From the NCBI RefSeq assembly GCF_044647545.1, contig NZ_CP172818.1: 64,000 bases of DNA. The stretch is one strand, 5' to 3'. The position numbers and the translations under genes are program-made. The stretch is from Escherichia coli. Its GTDB lineage: Bacteria; Pseudomonadota; Gammaproteobacteria; Enterobacterales; Enterobacteriaceae. Under the pieces are notes generated by a model. That model was not told the DNA's origin, searched no databases, and saw only the letters and a program-made list of their open reading frames with translations. Shown one piece after another: positions 1 to 29,400 of the stretch (position 1 is its first letter; the number at the start of each line of letters is the position of its first letter).

Positions 1-1871
1 GAATTTTATCAGCGTTCGATTAACGAACCGGAGCAGTTCTGGGCCGAGCAGGCCGTGTATTGACTGGCAGACGCCCTTTACGCAAACGCTCGATCACAGC
101 AATCCGCCGTTTGCCCGTTGGTTTTGTGAAGGCTGAACCAACTTGTGCACAACGCTATCGACCGCTGGCTGGAGAAACAGCCAGAGGCGCTGGCGCTGAT
201 TGCCGTCTCTTCGGAAACAGAAGAAGAGCGCACCTTTACCTTTCGTCAGCTGCATGACGAAGTGAACGCGGTGGCCTCAATGTTGCGTTCATTGGGCGTG
301 CAGCGTGGCGATCGGGTGCTGGTGTATATGCCGATGATTGCCGAAGCGCATATTACTCTGCTGGCCTGCGCGCGCATTGGCGCTATTCACTCGGTGGTGT
401 TTGGGGGATTTGCCTCGCACAGCGTGGCGGCGCGAATTGATGATGCTAAACCGGTGCTGATTGTCTCGGCTGATGCCGGAGCGCGCGGTGGCAAAATCAT
501 TCCCTATAAAAAATTGCTCGACGATGCGATAAGTCAGGCGCAGCACCAGCCACGCCATGTTTTGCTGGTGGATCGCGGGCTGGCGAAAATGGCGCGCGTC
601 AGCGGGCGGGATGTCGATTTCGCGTCGTTGCGCCATCAACACATCGGCGCGCGGGTACCGGTGGCGTGGCTGGAATCCAACGAAACCTCCTGCATTCTCT
701 ACACCTCCGGCACGACCGGCAAACCTAAAGGCGTGCAGCGTGACGTCGGCGGATATGCGGTGGCGCTGGCGACCTCGATGGACACCATTTTTGGCGGCAA
801 AGCGGGCGGTGTGTTCCTTTGTGCTTCGGATATCGGCTGGGTGGTGGGGCGTTCTATATCGTCTACGCGCCGCTGCTGGCGGGGATGGCGACTATCGTTT
901 ACGAAGGATTACCGACCTGGCCGGACTGCGGCGTGTGGTGGAAAATCGTCGAGAAATATCAGGTTAGCCGGATGTTCTCAGCGCCGACCGCCATTCGCGT
1001 GCTGAAAAAATTCCCTACCGCTGAAATTCGCAAACACGATCTCTCGTCGCTGGAAGTGCTCTATCTGGCTGGAGAACCGCTGGACGAGCCGACCGCCAGT
1101 TGGGTGAGCAATACGCTGGATGTGCCGGTGATCGACAACTACTGGCAGACCGAATCCGGCTGGCCGATTATGGCGATTGCTCGCGGTCTGGACGACAGGC
1201 CGACGCGTCTGGGAAGCCCCGGTGTGCCGATGTATGGCTATAACGTGCAGTTGCTTAATGAAGTCACCGGCGAACCGTGTGGCGTCAACGAGAAAGGGAT
1301 GCTGGTGGTGGAAGGGCCGCTGCCGCCGGGGTGTATTCAGACCATCTGGGGCGACGACGGCCGCTTTGTGAAGACTTACTGGTCGCTGTTTTCCCGCCCG
1401 GTGTACGCCACCTTTGACTGGGGCATCCGTGACGCTGACGGTTATCACTTTATTCTCGGGCGCACTGACGATGTGATTAACGTTGCCGGGCATCGGCTGG
1501 GGACGCGCGAGATTGAAGAGAGTATCTCCAGCCATCCGGGCGTTGCCGAAGTGGCGGTGGTTGGGGTGAAAGATGCGCTGAAAGGGCAGGTGGCGGTGGC
1601 GTTTGTCATTCCGAAAGAGAGCGACAGTCTGGAAGATCGTGATGTGGCGCACTCGCAAGAGAAGGCGATTATGGCGCTGGTGGACAGCCAGATTGGCAAC
1701 TTTGGCCGCCCGGCGCACGTCTGGTTTGTCTCGCAATTGCCAAAAACGCGATCCGGAAAAATGCTGCGCCGCACGATCCAGGCGATTTGCGAAGGACGCG
1801 ATCCTGGAGATCTGACGACCATTGATGATCCTGCGTCGTTGGATCAGATCCGCCAGGCGATGGAAGAGTAG
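1..1871 (+). pseudogene. prpE: propionyl-CoA synthetase (AMP-forming acyl-CoA synthetase), 5'-truncated by window edge and frame-disrupted
   Basis: Translation is acyl-CoA synthetase-like (YTSGTTGKPKG motif ~696-731; C-terminal SGKMLRR). Frame is broken: stop at 61-63 in entry frame, TGA at 134-136 in the continuing frame, frame changes near 146-148 and 850-854; ORF fragments 145-1005 and 819-1871 overlap in different frames. Confidence 0.8.
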
Positions 1872-1875
1872 GTTA

Positions 1876-2050
1876 TTGTCGGATGCGTCGCGCGGCGCAT
1901 CCGGCACTGGTGCCGATGCCTGATGCGACGCTGACGCGTCTTATCATGCCTACGGACCTGAACCGTAGGTCGGATAAGGCGCTCGCGCCGCATCCGACAC
2001 CATGCTCAGATGCCTGATGCGACGCTGACGCGTCTTATCAGGCCTACCCA
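1876..2050. repeat. cluster of REP-like palindromic units (BIME-like)
   Basis: Repeated GCCGGATGCG...CGCATCCGAC / GCCTGATGCGACGCTGACGCGTCTTATCAGGCCTAC palindromes typical of enterobacterial REP elements. Confidence 0.6.
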
Positions 2051-2117
2051 CTGTTTTTACACCGATAATTTTTCCCCCACCTTTTTGCACTCATTCATAT
2101 AAAAAATATATTTCCCC

Positions 2118-2133
2118 ACGAAAACGATTGCTT
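2118..2133 (+). promoter_or_regulatory. PurR-box-like operator upstream of codB
   Basis: acgaaaacgattgctt resembles the PurR operator consensus (aCGcAAaCGtTTtCnT); position fits the codBA promoter. Recollection-based. Confidence 0.4.
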
Positions 2134-2199
2134 TTTATCTTCAGATGAATAGAATGCGGCGGATTTTTTGGGTTTCAAACAGCAAAAAGGGGGAATTTC

Positions 2200-3455
2200 G
2201 TGTCGCAAGATAACAACTTTAGCCAGGGGCCAGTCCCGCAGTCGGCGCGGAAAGGGGTATTGGCATTGACGTTCGTCATGCTGGGATTAACCTTCTTTTC
2301 CGCCAGTATGTGGACCGGCGGCACTCTGGAACCGGTCTTAGCTATCATCAATTCTTTCCTCGCAGTTCTCATCGGTAATCTTCTCCTCGGTATTTACACT
2401 TGATTTCTCGGTTACATTGGCGCAAACCGGCCTGACCACTCATCTTCTTGCTCGCTTCTGGTTTGGTGTTAAAGGCTCATGGCTGCCTTCACTGCTACTG
2501 GGCGGAACTCAGGTTGGCTGGTTTGGCGTCGGTGTGGCGATGTTTGCCATTTCGGTGGGTAAGGCAACCGGGCTGGATATTAATTTGCTGATTGCCGTTT
2601 CCGGTTTACTGATGACCGTCACCGTCTTTTTTGGCATTTGGCGCTGACGGTTCTTTCGGTGATTGCGGTTCCGGCTATCGCCTGCCTGGGCGGTTATTCC
2701 GTGTGGCTGGCTGTTAACGGCATGGGCGGCCTGGACGCATTAAAAGCGGTCGTTCCCGCACAACCGTTAATTTCAATCTCGCGCTGGCGCTGGTTGTGGT
2801 CATTTTCTGGTGGGTACGCTCGCCGCTGGCGCCTTTTGTCCGGTTTGGTCGCAATGCCAAACTGGCGGTGCTGGTGGCGATGGTGGCCTTTTTCCTCGGC
2901 AACTGGTTGATGTTTATTTTCGGTGCAGCGGGCGCTGCGGCACTGCGCATGGCGGATATCTCTGATGTGATGATTGCTCAGGGCCTGCTGCTGCCTGCGA
3001 TTGTGGTGCTGGGGCTGAATATCTGGACCACCAACGATAACGCACTCTATGCGTCGGGTTTAGGTTTCGCCAACATTACCGGGATGTCGAGCAAAACCCT
3101 TTCGGTAATCAACGGTATTATCGGTACGGTCTGCGCATTATGGCTGTATAACAATTTTGTCGGCTGGTTGACCTTCCTTTCGGCAGCTATTCCTCCAGTG
3201 GGTGGCGTGATCATCGCCGACTATCTGATGAACCGTCGCCGCTATGAGCACTTTGCGACCACGCGTATGATGAGTGTCAATTGGGTGGCGATTCTGGCGG
3301 TCGCCTTGGGGATTGCTGCAGGCCACTGGTTACCGGGAATTGTTCCGGTCAACGCGGTATTAGGTGGCGCGCTGAGCTATCTGATCCTTAACCCGATTTT
3401 GAATCGTAAAACGACAGCAGCAATGACGCATGTGGAGGCTAACAGTGTCGAATAA
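2200..3455 (+). pseudogene. codB: cytosine permease, frame-disrupted
   Basis: GTG start at 2200 with upstream SD; N-terminus MSQDNNFSQGPVPQSARKG. Gene is split into four ORF fragments (2200-2403, 2417-2647, 2638-2910, 2796-3455): premature TGA 2401-2403 and frame changes near 2404-2430, ~2636 and ~2770. Confidence 0.8.
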
Positions 3456-10504: not shown

Positions 10505-13617
<3,113 letters not shown>

Positions 13618-13623
13618 TCACAC

Positions 13624-13690
13624 AACATACGAGCCGGACGCATAAAATGTAAAGCCTGGGGTGCCTAATGAGTGAGCTGACTCACATTAA
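13624..13690 (-). promoter_or_regulatory. lacP: lac promoter (-10 at 13624-13629, -35 at 13648-13653) and CAP/CRP site (13666-13690)
   Basis: Reverse complement gives TTTACA...TATGTT spacing and a TGTGAGTcAGCTCACT CRP site; several substitutions versus the K-12 sequence as recalled. Confidence 0.75.
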
Positions 13691-13701
13691 TTGCGTTGCG
13701 C

Positions 13702-23642: not shown

Positions 23643-24182
23643 ATGGCAAAACTTACCTTACAAGAGCAGTTGCTCAAAGCAGGATTAGTCACCAGCAAAA
23701 AAGCGGCGAAGGTCGAGAGAACGGCGAAAAAATCGCGCGTTCAGGCGCGTGAAGCTCGGGCGGCGGTAGAAGAAAATAAAAAGGCACAGCTTGAGCGTGA
23801 TAAACAGCTTAGTGAGCAGCAAAAACAAGCGGCGTTGGCGAAAGAATATAAAGCTCAGGTGAAGCAGCTTATCGAAATGAACCGGATCACCATTGCCAAT
23901 GGCGATATCGGTTTTAACTTTACCGATGGCAATCTGATTAAGAAGATTTTTGTCGATAAGCTCACACAAACGCAGTTGATTAATGGTCGTCTGGCGATTG
24001 CACGTTTGCAGATCGATAACAATAGCGAAGGTGAATACGCCATTATTCCCGCCAGCGTTGCCGATAAAATTGCTCAGCGTGATGCCAGCAGTATTGTGTT
24101 GCACAGCGCGCTCAGCGCCGAAGAGCAGGATGAAGACGATCCGTATGCTGACTTCAAAGTGCCTGATGATTTGATGTGGTAA
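23643..24182 (+). CDS. yaiL: conserved protein of unknown function (DUF2058-like)
   Basis: 179 aa from ATG 23643 (MAKLTLQEQLLKAGLV...), Lys/Glu-rich N-terminal half. Confidence 0.8.
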   Translation: MAKLTLQEQLLKAGLVTSKKAAKVERTAKKSRVQAREARAAVEENKKAQLERDKQLSEQQKQAALAKEYKAQVKQLIEMNRITIANGDIGFNFTDGNLIKKIFVDKLTQTQLINGRLAIARLQIDNNSEGEYAIIPASVADKIAQRDASSIVLHSALSAEEQDEDDPYADFKVPDDLMW

Positions 24183-24199
24183 ACATTGATAAATCGTGT

Positions 24200-24340
24200 G
24201 CAGCACCCACACCAGCCAGCAAGAGCGGATAAGGCGTCCGCCCACCGGCAGCGTGCATCCTGATGACGCTTTGCATCTATCATCCTAGTTTCCAGAAATA
24301 GGATAAGGCGTTCACGCCGCATCCGGCAGTCGTGCACTAT
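24200..24340. repeat. REP-like palindromic elements between yaiL and frmB
   Basis: GGATAAGGCGTTCACGCCGCATCCGGCAG-type units. Confidence 0.5.
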
Positions 24341-24342
24341 TA

Positions 24343-25176
24343 TCAACGCATATTCAGTTTATTGGCGTGGTACGCAATATGCTCGCCAATAAAACTGGAG
24401 ACAAAATAATAGCTGTGATCATAACCCTCGTGATAACGGATTAACGTCTTGATATTCATCTCCTGGCAGATCTTTTCAAGATTTGAAGTCCGCAGCTGTT
24501 CTGCGTAAAAATCATCACTCAACCCCTGATCAACCATTATTTCCGCAACGCGTTGACCTTGTGAAATAAGGCTCACCGGATCGTAATCCAACCAGGCTTC
24601 TTTATTTTCACCAAGATACGCGGCAAAGGCTTGCTGTCCCCACGGTACTTGCGATGGGGAGACAATGGGCGAAAACGCCGAGACGCTGGCATATTCATCT
24701 GGGTTACGTAACGCCAGCACCAGCGCGCCCAGCCCGCCCATAGAATGACCCGATATCGACTTTCTTGCCGTTGCTGGAAAATGTTTCAGCACTAAATCTG
24801 GTAGCTCGCTGCGGATGTAGTCATACATTTTGAAATGTTCATTCCACGGCGCTTGTGTTGCGTTCAGGTAGAACCCGGCACCTTGCCCGAGATCGTAACG
24901 GTCGGCATCTGCGACATGACTGCCTCGCGGACTGGTGTCTGGCGCAACAACAATAATGTTGTGCTCCGCCGCGTAACGTTGCATCCCCGATTTAGTAATG
25001 AAATTCTGCTCGTTGCAGGTCAGGCCCGAAAGCCAGTACAGCACCGGTAATTTTTCATTCCCGGCTTTTGGTGGGAGATAGACGCCGACATTCATTTCAC
25101 ATTTCAGTGATTGGGAATAATGCCGATACACATTTTGCCAGCCGCCAAAGCTGGCATGTTTTTCAATGAGTTCCAT
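24343..25176 (-). CDS. frmB: S-formylglutathione hydrolase
   Basis: 277-aa esterase with GHSMGG motif. Confidence 0.9.
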   Translation of the reverse strand: MELIEKHASFGGWQNVYRHYSQSLKCEMNVGVYLPPKAGNEKLPVLYWLSGLTCNEQNFITKSGMQRYAAEHNIIVVAPDTSPRGSHVADADRYDLGQGAGFYLNATQAPWNEHFKMYDYIRSELPDLVLKHFPATARKSISGHSMGGLGALVLALRNPDEYASVSAFSPIVSPSQVPWGQQAFAAYLGENKEAWLDYDPVSLISQGQRVAEIMVDQGLSDDFYAEQLRTSNLEKICQEMNIKTLIRYHEGYDHSYYFVSSFIGEHIAYHANKLNMR

Positions 25177-25267
25177 CAGTCATTATCTCACGGTTAATCC
25201 CCCGGACGGCTGCCCGGGGAGAGTATTAAGAACCCCGTCTGAACTGGACGGGTAAACCTGCGGGAAA

Positions 25268-26407
<1,140 letters not shown>

Positions 26408-26411
26408 TCAG

Positions 26412-26687
26412 CTATTTAAGATAGGCACGAACCAGTTCAATAGTGTCGTCAACGGATTGGCTGACTTCGCGGCTGTAGCAGTCATTTCGGTCAAACGTTT
26501 CCCGGATATGGCTTTCAAGCACTTCTGCCATCAGCCCGTTAGCCGCGCCCCGAACGGCAGCGATCTGTTGGAGTATGGCACGGCATTCGGCATCACCCTC
26601 CAGCGACCGTTCCAGAGCATCAATTTGCCCCCGAATACGACGAACTCGAGTAAGGACCTTTTTCTTCTCTTCCGGAGTACTGGGCAT
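26412..26687 (-). CDS. frmR: formaldehyde-responsive repressor (CsoR/RcnR family)
   Basis: 91 aa from [30 protein letters not shown]...; first gene of frmRAB. Confidence 0.9.
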
Positions 26688-26713
26688 TTCGCACCTCATC
26701 ATCTGCACGCAAT

Positions 26714-26762
26714 ATACTATAGGGGGGTATGCTATATGTCAATGCATACCCCCCTATAGTAT
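26714..26762. promoter_or_regulatory. frmR operator/promoter: 19-bp perfect inverted repeat with G6/C6 tracts
   Basis: atactataggggggtatgc (26714-26732) and gcatacccccctatagtat (26744-26762) lie immediately upstream of the frmR start. Confidence 0.7.
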
Positions 26763-26871
26763 ATAACACTGGAGAATAAAATTTATCCGGTGAATGTAGT
26801 CGGATAACAAAAAGGAAAGAGGGGCCTAATCGACAGGGAAGGCCGCCCCGGATAGCGGGCGGCAGAAGCAA

Positions 26872-27645
26872 TCAGAATTTCCAGGTCAGATGGGCTGCAA
26901 GTTGCAGACCGTTATAATCATCGGTTGGGGTGTCGTACCACACTTTACCTGCCGTCAGCCCGAGATTAAGTTGCTCAGTCAGCGGTTGAATACGTTGCAG
27001 ACTGACGCTCTTCATGCTGCCGTAGCGTGTTTCTGGCGTCCAGTCATAGGTGTAAGCGCCTGTTCCGCGGCTTAGCCATAGTTGCGTATAACCAGTGCCG
27101 CGCGGGTCATTCAGACGCACGGAAATCATATTGCTGTAACTACCACCTGCATCGCTGGAGTCATAATGGGTATAGCGGTAGCTGGAGATCACCGGGCCAG
27201 TATAGAGGGATACGCCGCCTTGCCAGGCATCGACTTCGACATCATCGTAATATTTAGTGTAGCGATAACCGGTCGTGAAAAGCGTTTTTGGCAACAGGGC
27301 CAGGTTAATATCCTGACGAAAATCCTGGCGGGCAAAGACCGGCGTATTATCCGCAAAGGCAATACCCGTTCGGGTTGTCAGCCAGTTATTCCATTTATAC
27401 CAGACCGCACCCTGACCGCGAGTGGCATTGAAATGTTCAGTTTCATAATCACGACGCCCCTGGGAAAGATTAAAAAGCAGCGTTGCGTTTTCAACTTTCG
27501 CCACCAGTTCAGCATACGCTAAATTACGATTGCCATGATCGCCAGAATAATCGGTAAAATCGTAGCCCGCGGTAATGGAAGTTAACCCGGCATAAGCGGG
27601 CAATGTGCTAAAAATGGCCGCCGCTAATAACGTCCGTTTTATCAT
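26872..27645 (-). CDS. yaiO: outer-membrane beta-barrel protein
   Basis: 257-aa ORF with signal peptide (MIKRTLLAAAIFSTLPAYA) and C-terminal aromatic residue (…HLTWKF). Confidence 0.85.
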   Translation of the reverse strand: MIKRTLLAAAIFSTLPAYAGLTSITAGYDFTDYSGDHGNRNLAYAELVAKVENATLLFNLSQGRRDYETEHFNATRGQGAVWYKWNNWLTTRTGIAFADNTPVFARQDFRQDINLALLPKTLFTTGYRYTKYYDDVEVDAWQGGVSLYTGPVISSYRYTHYDSSDAGGSYSNMISVRLNDPRGTGYTQLWLSRGTGAYTYDWTPETRYGSMKSVSLQRIQPLTEQLNLGLTAGKVWYDTPTDDYNGLQLAAHLTWKF

Positions 27646-27646
27646 T

Positions 27647-28203
27647 TTAATCTCCTGTACGGATAAGTTCTTGTCGGAGTGAATAAGTTCCGGTAGGTAA
27701 ATTACGTTCTACAATCACGCGCGGGCCAAGTTGCGTGTTCGGGGAAATAATTCGCCCAGGCAAAATAATAACTTGTACGCCAAGGCGTGAACGCTGTCCG
27801 ATATAACAACCTAATTTATCGCATCCGGTAGCGATAATTCCCTCTGGAGTTCGAACAGACACGGGCTGTTCATCCAGACGATGATTACTGGTACGTACTT
27901 GTGCGCCCAAATATGCCTGGTTTGCGACTACCGAGTCGGCAATAAAACATTGCGGACCAATCGTTGCTTCCGCTTCAATAACCGCATTTTTAATTTCGGT
28001 GGCGAAACCAATTTTTACGCCATTGCTGATTATTGTGCCAGGACGAATAAACGAAATTACCTATCAGGCAGTTTGCGCCAATCACTACCGGACCCTGAAT
28101 AACGGCACCGTGACAAATACGGGTATTCGCGCCGATAACAACTTCACCTGCAGTTTCATCAATAATTACCTGGTCTGCAATCTGAATATTTTTCTCTTTA
28201 ACA
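27647..28203 (-). pseudogene. yaiX: hexapeptide-repeat acyltransferase, frameshifted
   Basis: Hexapeptide repeats (VIGANTRICHGAVIQGPVVIGANCLIGN) continue in another frame (IRPGTIISNGVKIGFA...) with the switch near 28040-28060; no IS element at the break. Confidence 0.7.
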
Positions 28204-29400
28204 TTAAGCTTCAGAAAGTTTTTCAGTTCCTGTGACAGAAGGTTGGGAATAAGCGGTTGACGCTTCCACCAGTGCGGAATAGCGGGTGGGTTTGTCGCGC
28301 TGAGGTTCGCGTCCAGTAAAAAAGGCAATAAGTCCATAAATAATCCAGATGGCATAAGCTAATAATACATACACAACGGAAAGCGGCGCTAAAGGCACCA
28401 ACAACCAGCAACGATGAAACCAGGCGCTAAAAGCACCAATAACACAAACTACGCCGACCCAGATAAGCGGAAACATTGCCAACACCACACCATGCGGCCC
28501 GGTGGTGATGAATTCATTAAACCAGGTAGTGAGATAAATCCCAACGCCATAAAGCACAACCAACAGCATAGGAAATATACTGAAGATACCGAAGCGGCTA
28601 AATAAAAGTCTTTTATGCAGGCGCATACAGACCGCGTAGCCCACAATCCAACGCCGCCAGCGACGCCATTCCTCACGCGGGCTGTTGCATTCCTGTGGGT
28701 ATACGATGCAGCGATTCGCCTGCCGAATACGATAGCCGTTTGCCACCAATGTCCAGGTGAGATCAAGGTCTTCGACTTTAGTACGATCAGAGAAACCGAA
28801 CTTACGCAATACATCAGTACGGAACATCCCGCAGGCACCGCTGATAATAAACGGTGCGCCGCCCAGGAGCTGCTGTAGCGTGCGCTTCATAACAATCATC
28901 GGCAACTTTACGGTCGCGCGGATGTGCGGTAACAGCCCCGCGCCTTTCAACGCAGTAGAGGGAATGCCGCCTACGGCATCAGCACCGCGCTCAATTTCTG
29001 CCAGCATATAGCCCATTCCGTCTTGATCGGGCGGAACATAGGTGTCGGCATCACTTAAAAAAACCTGGTCGCAGGTGGCGTAATTGAGGCCATTCATCAG
29101 CGCACCACCTTTACCGGTATTTTTTTGCGTGACGGCAACAAAGCGGTCGCCCCATTTGCGTTTGACTTCCGCCATGACCGCTTCGGTATTGTCCGTGGAG
29201 CCGTCGTTAACGCAAATTACCCGGCAAAAATAAGGGTTACGCAGCAGATTATCCAGTGACTGCGCCAGACACGGGCCTTCGTTATAAGCAGGTATAATGG
29301 CGTCAATACAGCCTTTTTTTTGGCTGGGCTTACGCCTTAACGTACTCAGGAACCATAGCAATATTGCTACGGCCATACAGATAAATATCCAGGTTTTCAT
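28204..29400 (-). CDS. yaiP: membrane glycosyltransferase, family 2
   Basis: 398-aa ORF with N-terminal TM, GT-A signatures (CVNDGSTDNT, SDADTYV) and C-terminal TM helices. Confidence 0.85.
   Translation of the reverse strand: MKTWIFICMAVAILLWFLSTLRRKPSQKKGCIDAIIPAYNEGPCLAQSLDNLLRNPYFCRVICVNDGSTDNTEAVMAEVKRKWGDRFVAVTQKNTGKGGALMNGLNYATCDQVFLSDADTYVPPDQDGMGYMLAEIERGADAVGGIPSTALKGAGLLPHIRATVKLPMIVMKRTLQQLLGGAPFIISGACGMFRTDVLRKFGFSDRTKVEDLDLTWTLVANGYRIRQANRCIVYPQECNSPREEWRRWRRWIVGYAVCMRLHKRLLFSRFGIFSIFPMLLVVLYGVGIYLTTWFNEFITTGPHGVVLAMFPLIWVGVVCVIGAFSAWFHRCWLLVPLAPLSVVYVLLAYAIWIIYGLIAFFTGREPQRDKPTRYSALVEASTAYSQPSVTGTEKLSEA

Follow-up and report, generated by a model that had tools for sequence, protein, structure and literature searches.

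The long inverted repeat immediately upstream of frmR in this 64,000-nucleotide stretch of Escherichia coli DNA (hereafter, the window) is very probably the operator of the frmRAB promoter, composed of two mirrored 17-bp boxes for the repressor FrmR. The functional unit is the 17-bp box, occurring once per arm, and not the 53-bp palindrome as such. Operator, element and mechanism are all already known from published work, and we regard the site as ordinary and well explained. It controls the main operon by which E. coli detoxifies formaldehyde, and the frm promoter has been widely reused as a biosensor for formaldehyde or methylglyoxal. Our analysis adds comparative detail: a conserved unit of 17 bp, a second box restricted to certain lineages, a dispensable G-run, and a palindrome without detectable selection. 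Such details could be of use when minimal or orthogonal promoters under FrmR control are designed.

On the plus strand, positions 26712-26764 read ATATACTATAGGGGGGTATGC TATATGTCAAT GCATACCCCCCTATAGTATAT (53 bp in all), the arms being ATATACTATAGGGGGGTATGC (26712-26732) and GCATACCCCCCTATAGTATAT (26744-26764) and the 11-nt spacer TATATGTCAAT. A repeat finder and a separate scan both gave 21-nt arms with 100% complementarity. The first-pass annotation had described a 19-bp perfect palindrome here; its 19-nt arms (26714-26732 and 26744-26762) are present but understate the repeat, since they are nested in the 21-nt arms, whose outer ends add two paired bases. The G6 and C6 tracts (26722-26727 and 26749-26754) and the 11-bp spacer that it reported are both found in the sequence. 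Among inverted repeats with a spacer of at most 30 nt, this is the longest perfect one in the window, the runner-up having 13-nt arms, and about 5e-7 perfect 21-nt repeats would be expected by chance (64000 x 31 x 4^-21, assuming uniform bases). Folded as single-stranded DNA, the palindrome gives a hairpin of -21.5 kcal/mol, compared to -6.8 +/- 2.0 for shuffled sequences (z = -7.4).

Elsewhere in the window, positions 13580-13700 on the minus strand are the lac promoter/operator region. We take it to differ from K-12 in the CAP site (gagtCagctc), the -35 (tttacaT) and the operator O1 (gtgAaattgtgagcgAataacaatt). Through one of these differences in O1, the perfect inverted repeat of the lac operator is extended to 13-nt arms (13590-13602 and 13612-13624). 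This lac haplotype is rare: over 81 nt, identity reached 99% or more in only 48 of 4,773 E. coli records.

The repeat lies where the first-pass annotation had placed it, immediately upstream of frmR: its edge is 24 nt from the frmR ATG (26687-26685, minus strand), and the downstream ORF is identified as FrmR by an NCBIfam equivalog model (Table 1). The window is chromosomal E. coli DNA; the 241 bp around the palindrome are 100% identical to E. coli FDAARGOS_497, where frmR and yaiO are annotated, and the same 241 bp were matched in 5,415 of 5,426 complete E. coli genomes. The gene adjoining the frmR promoter differs among E. coli; it is mostly yaiO, as in the window, with fbpC in FORC_044 and tauA in FDAARGOS_1265, and homology among E. 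coli breaks just upstream of the conserved promoter block (from window position 26779 onward). Further upstream, two adjacent minus-strand ORFs of 87 and 121 aa in different frames (27647-28355) lie between yaiO and a 398-aa glycosyltransferase-like ORF. They look like one frameshifted or pseudogenised gene, possibly yaiX.

On the frmR strand the region reads ...gttat ATATACTATAGGGGGGTATGC ATTGACATATA GCATACCCCCCTATAGTATAT tgcgtgcagatgatGAGGTGcgaaATG. A promoter scan of 26300-27100 found a single sigma-70-like promoter, TTGACA and TAGTAT at a 17-nt spacing (10 of 12 positions matching), with its -35 hexamer in the palindrome spacer and its -10 hexamer in the promoter-proximal box. The same scan found no promoter on the plus strand, and a scan for intrinsic terminators found none in this interval. 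The symmetric element takes its direction from the asymmetry of the spacer, which holds the -35. Relative to the predicted transcription start, the palindrome centre (26738) is at about -30, the proximal box spans approximately -22 to -6, and the distal box approximately -54 to -38. A search of the available literature found no mapped frmR transcription start. RNA folding of the DNA between yaiO and frmR yielded only a weak signal (z = -2.3). Sort-seq work by Rohlhill and colleagues in 2017 reportedly defined two 19-bp repressor sites in this promoter, the first lying upstream of the -35 and the second across the -10.

Read on the frmR strand, the proximal box is ATACCCCCCTATAGTAT, with a C6 core, and the distal box, ATACTATAGGGGGGTAT, is its inverted copy. 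The exact pattern ATAC-N9-GTAT occurs twice in the 64-kb window, which is to say only at these two boxes, whose starts are 32 bp apart. The boxes have the features of type I sites of the CsoR/RcnR (DUF156) family. Each arm carries G6 between ATACTATA and TAT(GC); the sites overlap the promoter of the cognate DUF156 repressor operon; and they are conserved upstream of orthologous repressor genes, in 70 of the 80 FrmR loci compared below.

Table 1. Features of the frmRAB operator region and neighbouring genes (window coordinates).
Feature	Position	Strand	Basis
Whole inverted repeat, 21-nt perfect arms and 11-nt spacer	26712..26764	.	sequence, repeat finder, scan, ssDNA fold
Promoter-proximal FrmR box, type I ATAC-N9-GTAT	26714..26730	-	pattern scan, consensus match
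Distal FrmR box	26746..26762	-	pattern scan, species comparison
-35 hexamer TTGACA	26737..26742	-	promoter scan
-10 hexamer TAGTAT	26714..26719	-	promoter scan
Predicted transcription start, 6-8 nt past the -10	26706..26708	-	inferred from promoter scan
Shine-Dalgarno-like GAGGTG before the frmR ATG	26692..26697	-	sequence; invariant in alignments
frmR, 91 aa, CsoR/RcnR-family formaldehyde-responsive repressor	26412..26687	-	NF008464, 189 bits (cutoff 133); RefSeq annotation of identical DNA
frmA, S-(hydroxymethyl)glutathione dehydrogenase	25268..26377	-	TIGR02818, 743 bits
frmB/fghA, S-formylglutathione hydrolase	24343..25176	-	TIGR02821, 397 bits
yaiO	26872-27645	-	annotated neighbour upstream of frmR

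Published experiments bear directly on this element. Denby et al. (2016; PMC5146963) described a large inverted repeat in E. coli frmRAB centred at -29 from the predicted start, and interpreted it as tandem type I FrmR sites in which ATAC and GTAT surround 9-bp GC-rich tracts (their Fig. 6a). For E. coli FrmR (EcFrmR), the Kd was about 220 nM on Pfrm DNA and about 3600 nM on control PydhY DNA, the Pfrm value being measured on a whole PCR fragment and fitted with a 1:1 model (PMC5146963). Formaldehyde dissociated the EcFrmR-Pfrm complex, and in vitro transcription from Pfrm was repressed by EcFrmR in a formaldehyde-reversible manner (PMC5146963). That paper uses neither the word footprint nor the term EMSA, and a literature search whose reach did not extend to the 2017 sort-seq study found no EcFrmR footprint on the E. 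coli site and no mutagenesis of its boxes one by one.

Evidence from the Salmonella operator bears on the proximal box. The proximal box plus 2 nt is identical at 19 of 19 nt to the core of Salmonella frmRAPro (ATACCCCCCTATAGTATAT). A 33-bp Salmonella probe that contains this core, TTCTGATAGTATACCCCCCTATAGTATATGGAG, binds two FrmR tetramers at about 100 nM (PMC4528141, PMC5016687), and a mutant probe, TTCTGGTTCAACACCCCCCTATAGTATATGGAG, in which one AT-rich flank was changed from ATAGTATAC to GTTCAACAC, showed no detectable FrmR binding (PMC5016687). Osman et al. (2016) also present an alignment of the frm promoters of the two species in which, according to the legend of their Fig. 2D, the G/C tracts and T/A-rich repeats are marked (PMC5016687).

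Promoter engineering points to the same unit. In a 2024 study, the promoter J23100 became FrmR-repressible when ATAC-N9-GTAT boxes were placed upstream of its -35 and in its spacer (PMC11127321). Papers citing Rohlhill et al. (2017) credit that study with mapping critical repressor sites in Pfrm by sort-seq mutagenesis (PMC11127321). A truncated PfrmR that kept both boxes and lacked the DNA upstream of them reportedly lost repression (PMC11127321), which raises the possibility that sequence upstream of the palindrome has a part in repression. A block adjoining the distal arm on its upstream side, TTTTATTCTCCAGTGTTAT (26765-26790), is kept in Escherichia with a different upstream gene, and TTTATTCT from this block is also present in a plasmid frm operon. 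Given this conservation and the behaviour of the truncated promoter, the block might serve as a weak third site or an UP element, or as a point of contact in wrapping.

The first-pass annotation had called the palindrome the obvious FrmR operator and had made that reading depend on FrmR binding the site in vitro. Binding has been published, both for the E. coli promoter (PMC5146963) and for the shared 19-nt Salmonella core (PMC4528141, PMC5016687), and the footprinting or gel-shift, reporter and mutagenesis experiments that it proposed have largely been done in published work. The operator reading is upheld by these experiments and by our comparative analysis, with the correction that the unit is the 17-bp box and not the palindrome.

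We compared 80 FrmR loci, taking one genome per species with FrmR protein as query, which ranged from Escherichia to Rhizobiales at 52-100% identity and spanned Alpha-, Beta- and Gammaproteobacteria. The Salmonella locus was not among the 80, and the published probe sequences stood in for it. Searching the 140 nt upstream of frmR for ATACT-N7-AGTAT with at most 2 flank mismatches found at least one box in 70 of the 80 loci, compared to about 6 expected from shuffled sequences; 49 loci had one box and 21 had two. The 37 distinct promoter-proximal boxes gave the consensus ATACTCCCCTATAGTAT, in which positions 1-4 and 14-17 are nearly invariant and with which the proximal box of the window agrees at 16 of 17 positions. 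The C-rich side of the box was on the coding strand in 27 of the 37. A run of six G is not required, as boxes in other species are kept with interrupted cores such as GTGGAG and GTAGAG.

Across the 80 loci the promoter-proximal box was nearly universal, and in Rhizobiales it comes directly after TTGAC. The second, inverted box was found mainly in Enterobacterales and Aeromonas. A box upstream of the -35 was found in Escherichia, Pantoea, Providencia, Edwardsiella, Aeromonas, Erwinia, Serratia and Morganella; in each of these genera except Erwinia, and in a mobile plasmid type, the two boxes are mirrored around TTGAC. This intervening motif was shared by every two-box species examined apart from Aeromonas, where it reads TTGAT. 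The start-to-start spacing was 32-35 bp across Enterobacterales and Aeromonas. Two further layouts were seen. In Erwinia endophytica (locus L021, positions ~1420-1470), the boxes ATACTgggatatAGTAT and ATACTggtgtatAGTAT are in direct orientation and not mirrored, providing a natural test in which the palindrome is not required. In Tatumella spp. (loci L024-L026 and L029-L030, positions ~1440-1470), a single extended palindrome ATACTATAC(T/C)CCCATATAGTAT forms two overlapping boxes with one core, unlike both the single-box and the two-box layouts.

Together, the published and comparative evidence suggest the following arrangement. FrmR recognizes ATAC-N9-GTAT, with a family consensus of ATACT-N7-AGTAT around a C/G-rich core, as a type I site of CsoR/RcnR (DUF156) repressors. 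The distal box lies just upstream of the -35, which fills the asymmetric spacer, and the proximal box overlies the -35/-10 spacer and the -10 hexamer. From this geometry, FrmR tetramers on the boxes would be expected to block RNA polymerase, a step for which repression in vitro has been published. According to published work, formaldehyde cross-links Pro2 of FrmR to Cys35 and alters the DNA-binding face, and release of the repressor de-represses frmRAB. The 21-nt complementarity is very probably a by-product of two opposed near-consensus boxes with two matching flank bases on each side, and no structure need form from it.

The palindrome itself might instead act as a cruciform or intrastrand hairpin, with supercoil-driven extrusion controlling the promoter or FrmR binding. 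The perfect 21-nt arms and the strong single-stranded hairpin would fit such a role, as would the mobile frmR operon, which has arms of a different sequence (GTGGAG/CTCCAC) that are nevertheless perfectly symmetric (L005, L013, L015 and L023). However, a structural palindrome would be expected to keep its complementarity through compensatory change across relatives, and we did not find this in 13 two-box loci. Mismatches between the arms, at 1-4 of 17 positions, occur in E. albertii, Pantoea, Providencia (two species), Edwardsiella hoshinae, Aeromonas and Serratia, and K-12-type E. coli has a mismatch at the inner arm end. In nine independent lineages, arm mismatch averaged 1.67 within genomes and 2.11 between genomes (permutation p = 0.07), and most of the arm complementarity is explained by both boxes matching one consensus. 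This lack of conserved complementarity among species weighs against a cruciform being required, as do the 49 of 80 loci that have a single box and no partner arm. An 11-nt loop disfavours cruciform extrusion. Since within-genome complementarity showed no significant excess and the boxes of one species are direct repeats, we rejected a cruciform or hairpin as a requirement, and we consider any such role very unlikely. The palindrome is still less plausibly, and almost certainly is not, a copy of a dispersed element (REP/BIME or a transposon end) or a structured-RNA gene, for which the strong hairpin and sub-threshold hits to Rfam miRNA precursors (about 27 bits, compared to gathering scores of 90-139) could be cited. 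In 5,415 of 5,426 E. coli genomes it is found at a single locus, invariably beside frmR, with plasmid frmR operons accounting for the extra copies; the median of two places per genome reflects the palindrome matching on both strands. A permissive scan found no Rfam family at gathering score in 24000-29000, the best match being a miRNA hairpin model at 26.8 bits compared to 90, and with the predicted start downstream of the palindrome, the frmR mRNA would not contain it.

Two other proposals accept the boxes and concern how they are used. A single FrmR tetramer might bridge both boxes with its two DNA-binding faces, looping or wrapping the -35, which would be a variant of the main mechanism and which we consider possible but unlikely. 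Denby et al. raised the possibility over the wide spacing of the boxes (PMC5146963), the boxes stay 32-35 bp apart, close to three helical turns, in Enterobacterales and Aeromonas, and the loss of repression in the truncated promoter hints at extended DNA contacts (PMC11127321). On the other hand, one box suffices in most lineages, the single Salmonella box binds two tetramers, and the spacing does vary over 3 bp, or roughly one-third of a helical turn. The crystal of formaldehyde-treated FrmR, in which one face is cross-linked and cannot fit DNA, speaks against bridging as well but is silent on the untreated tetramer (PMC5146963). Somewhat more doubtful is the proposal that the mirrored layout is a derived device and more than a pair of independent sites, in which an inverted duplication of the ancestral single proximal box adds an FrmR site ahead of the -35 and lets FrmR clamp or wrap the -35 and the arms are renewed by template-switching. 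If true, the device would give tighter repression, with the -35 clamped by one bridging tetramer or by wrapping of upstream DNA, and the perfect arms that arose independently in E. coli (G6/C6) and in the mobile operon (GTGGAG/CTCCAC) would be renewed by quasi-palindrome template-switch correction.

Variation within E. coli is consistent with two boxes as the conserved unit of the operator. Over 65 nt centred on the palindrome, 3,107 E. coli records show no difference and a further 2,305 have 1-3 differing positions. Sampled variants affect the inner arm end (the K-12-type change of GCATAC to GAATAC, and TATGC to TATGT) and the spacer (TTGACA to TTGACG, and TATAGC to TATGGC or TATATC), with others in the flanks, and none of the sampled variants, a small sample, has a base substitution within the 17-bp boxes. 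Since variants fall in the arm ends, spacer and flanks and the boxes are constant in this small sample, the perfect 21-nt pairing is a feature of the haplotype.

The first-pass annotation had also suggested that the palindrome with its G/C runs could be slippage-prone, which would allow G6 and C6 to serve as contingency tracts that toggle frmRAB regulation in populations. Four 31-32-nt megablast queries (G5, G7, C5 and C7) against 5,426 E. coli genomes found G5 in the distal arm of 12 genomes, among them the sampled genome FORC_044, and C5 in the proximal arm of 11, and no genome belonged to both sets. Because the proximal probes match only the flank haplotype of the window, these counts are lower bounds. 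These shortened tracts are the evidence in favour of slippage. But only 23 of the 5,426 genomes (0.4%) differ, always by the loss of 1 nt, and neither G7 nor C7 was found in any of the 5,426 by these probes, whereas a phase-variable tract would show frequent length polymorphism in both directions. The variants are scattered single genomes (O157:H7 SS17 has C5, while three other sampled O157 genomes match the arm of the window), and tracts interrupted in other species leave the box intact. Six bases are short for a phase-variable tract, and scattered deletions alone are the pattern expected of homopolymer errors in long-read assemblies. The G5 and C5 variants are probably such assembly errors or rare slippage, the former being favoured. 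With only rare 1-nt deletions to support it, we rejected a population-level slippage switch, which is extremely unlikely here. On present evidence we regard the long palindrome, the G/C homopolymers, and any cruciform formation or slippage as incidental to the two-box operator.

The closest known system is the E. coli element described by Denby et al. (2016, Sci Rep 6:38879, PMC5146963), which is the same inverted repeat with two ATAC-N9-GTAT sites and GC-rich cores. The window haplotype has perfect 21-nt arms, whereas the K-12-type has its substitution at the inner end of the proximal arm, and the separation we give as 32 bp from start to start compares to centres 31 bp apart in that paper. 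The Salmonella enterica frmRA operator has a C6 tract with T/A-rich inverted repeats, one flank of which is needed for binding, and shares the 19-nt core with the E. coli proximal arm (Osman et al., 2015, 2016; PMC4528141, PMC5016687). A single C6 site, tested on a 33-bp probe, has been described for Salmonella, whereas the E. coli promoter has another box, inverted, on the upstream side of the -35. A further known system is the RcnR operator of E. coli and Salmonella, between rcnR and rcnA, whose sites in E. coli are direct repeats with centres 19 bp apart (Iwig and Chivers, 2009, as cited in PMC5146963). Unlike these, the FrmR boxes are mirrored and 32 bp apart, with ATAC/GTAT flanks and a 9-bp core, and they enclose the -35.

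Mobile frmR-frmA-(VOC)-fghA operons provide a further comparison. One of these, the frmR-frmA-VOC-fghA operon of E. coli plasmid p2-S1-CAM-01-C (L005, positions 218-3100), adjoins an IS26 fragment, and near-identical mobile-type promoters are present in Edwardsiella anguillarum plasmid 1, an Enterobacter genome and Morganella psychrotolerans (L013, L015 and L023). The mobile operons have the same mirrored two-box layout around TTGAC and the same distance to the frmR start as the E. coli window, but with GTGGAG/CTCCAC cores and a 34-bp box spacing in place of G6/C6 and 32 bp.
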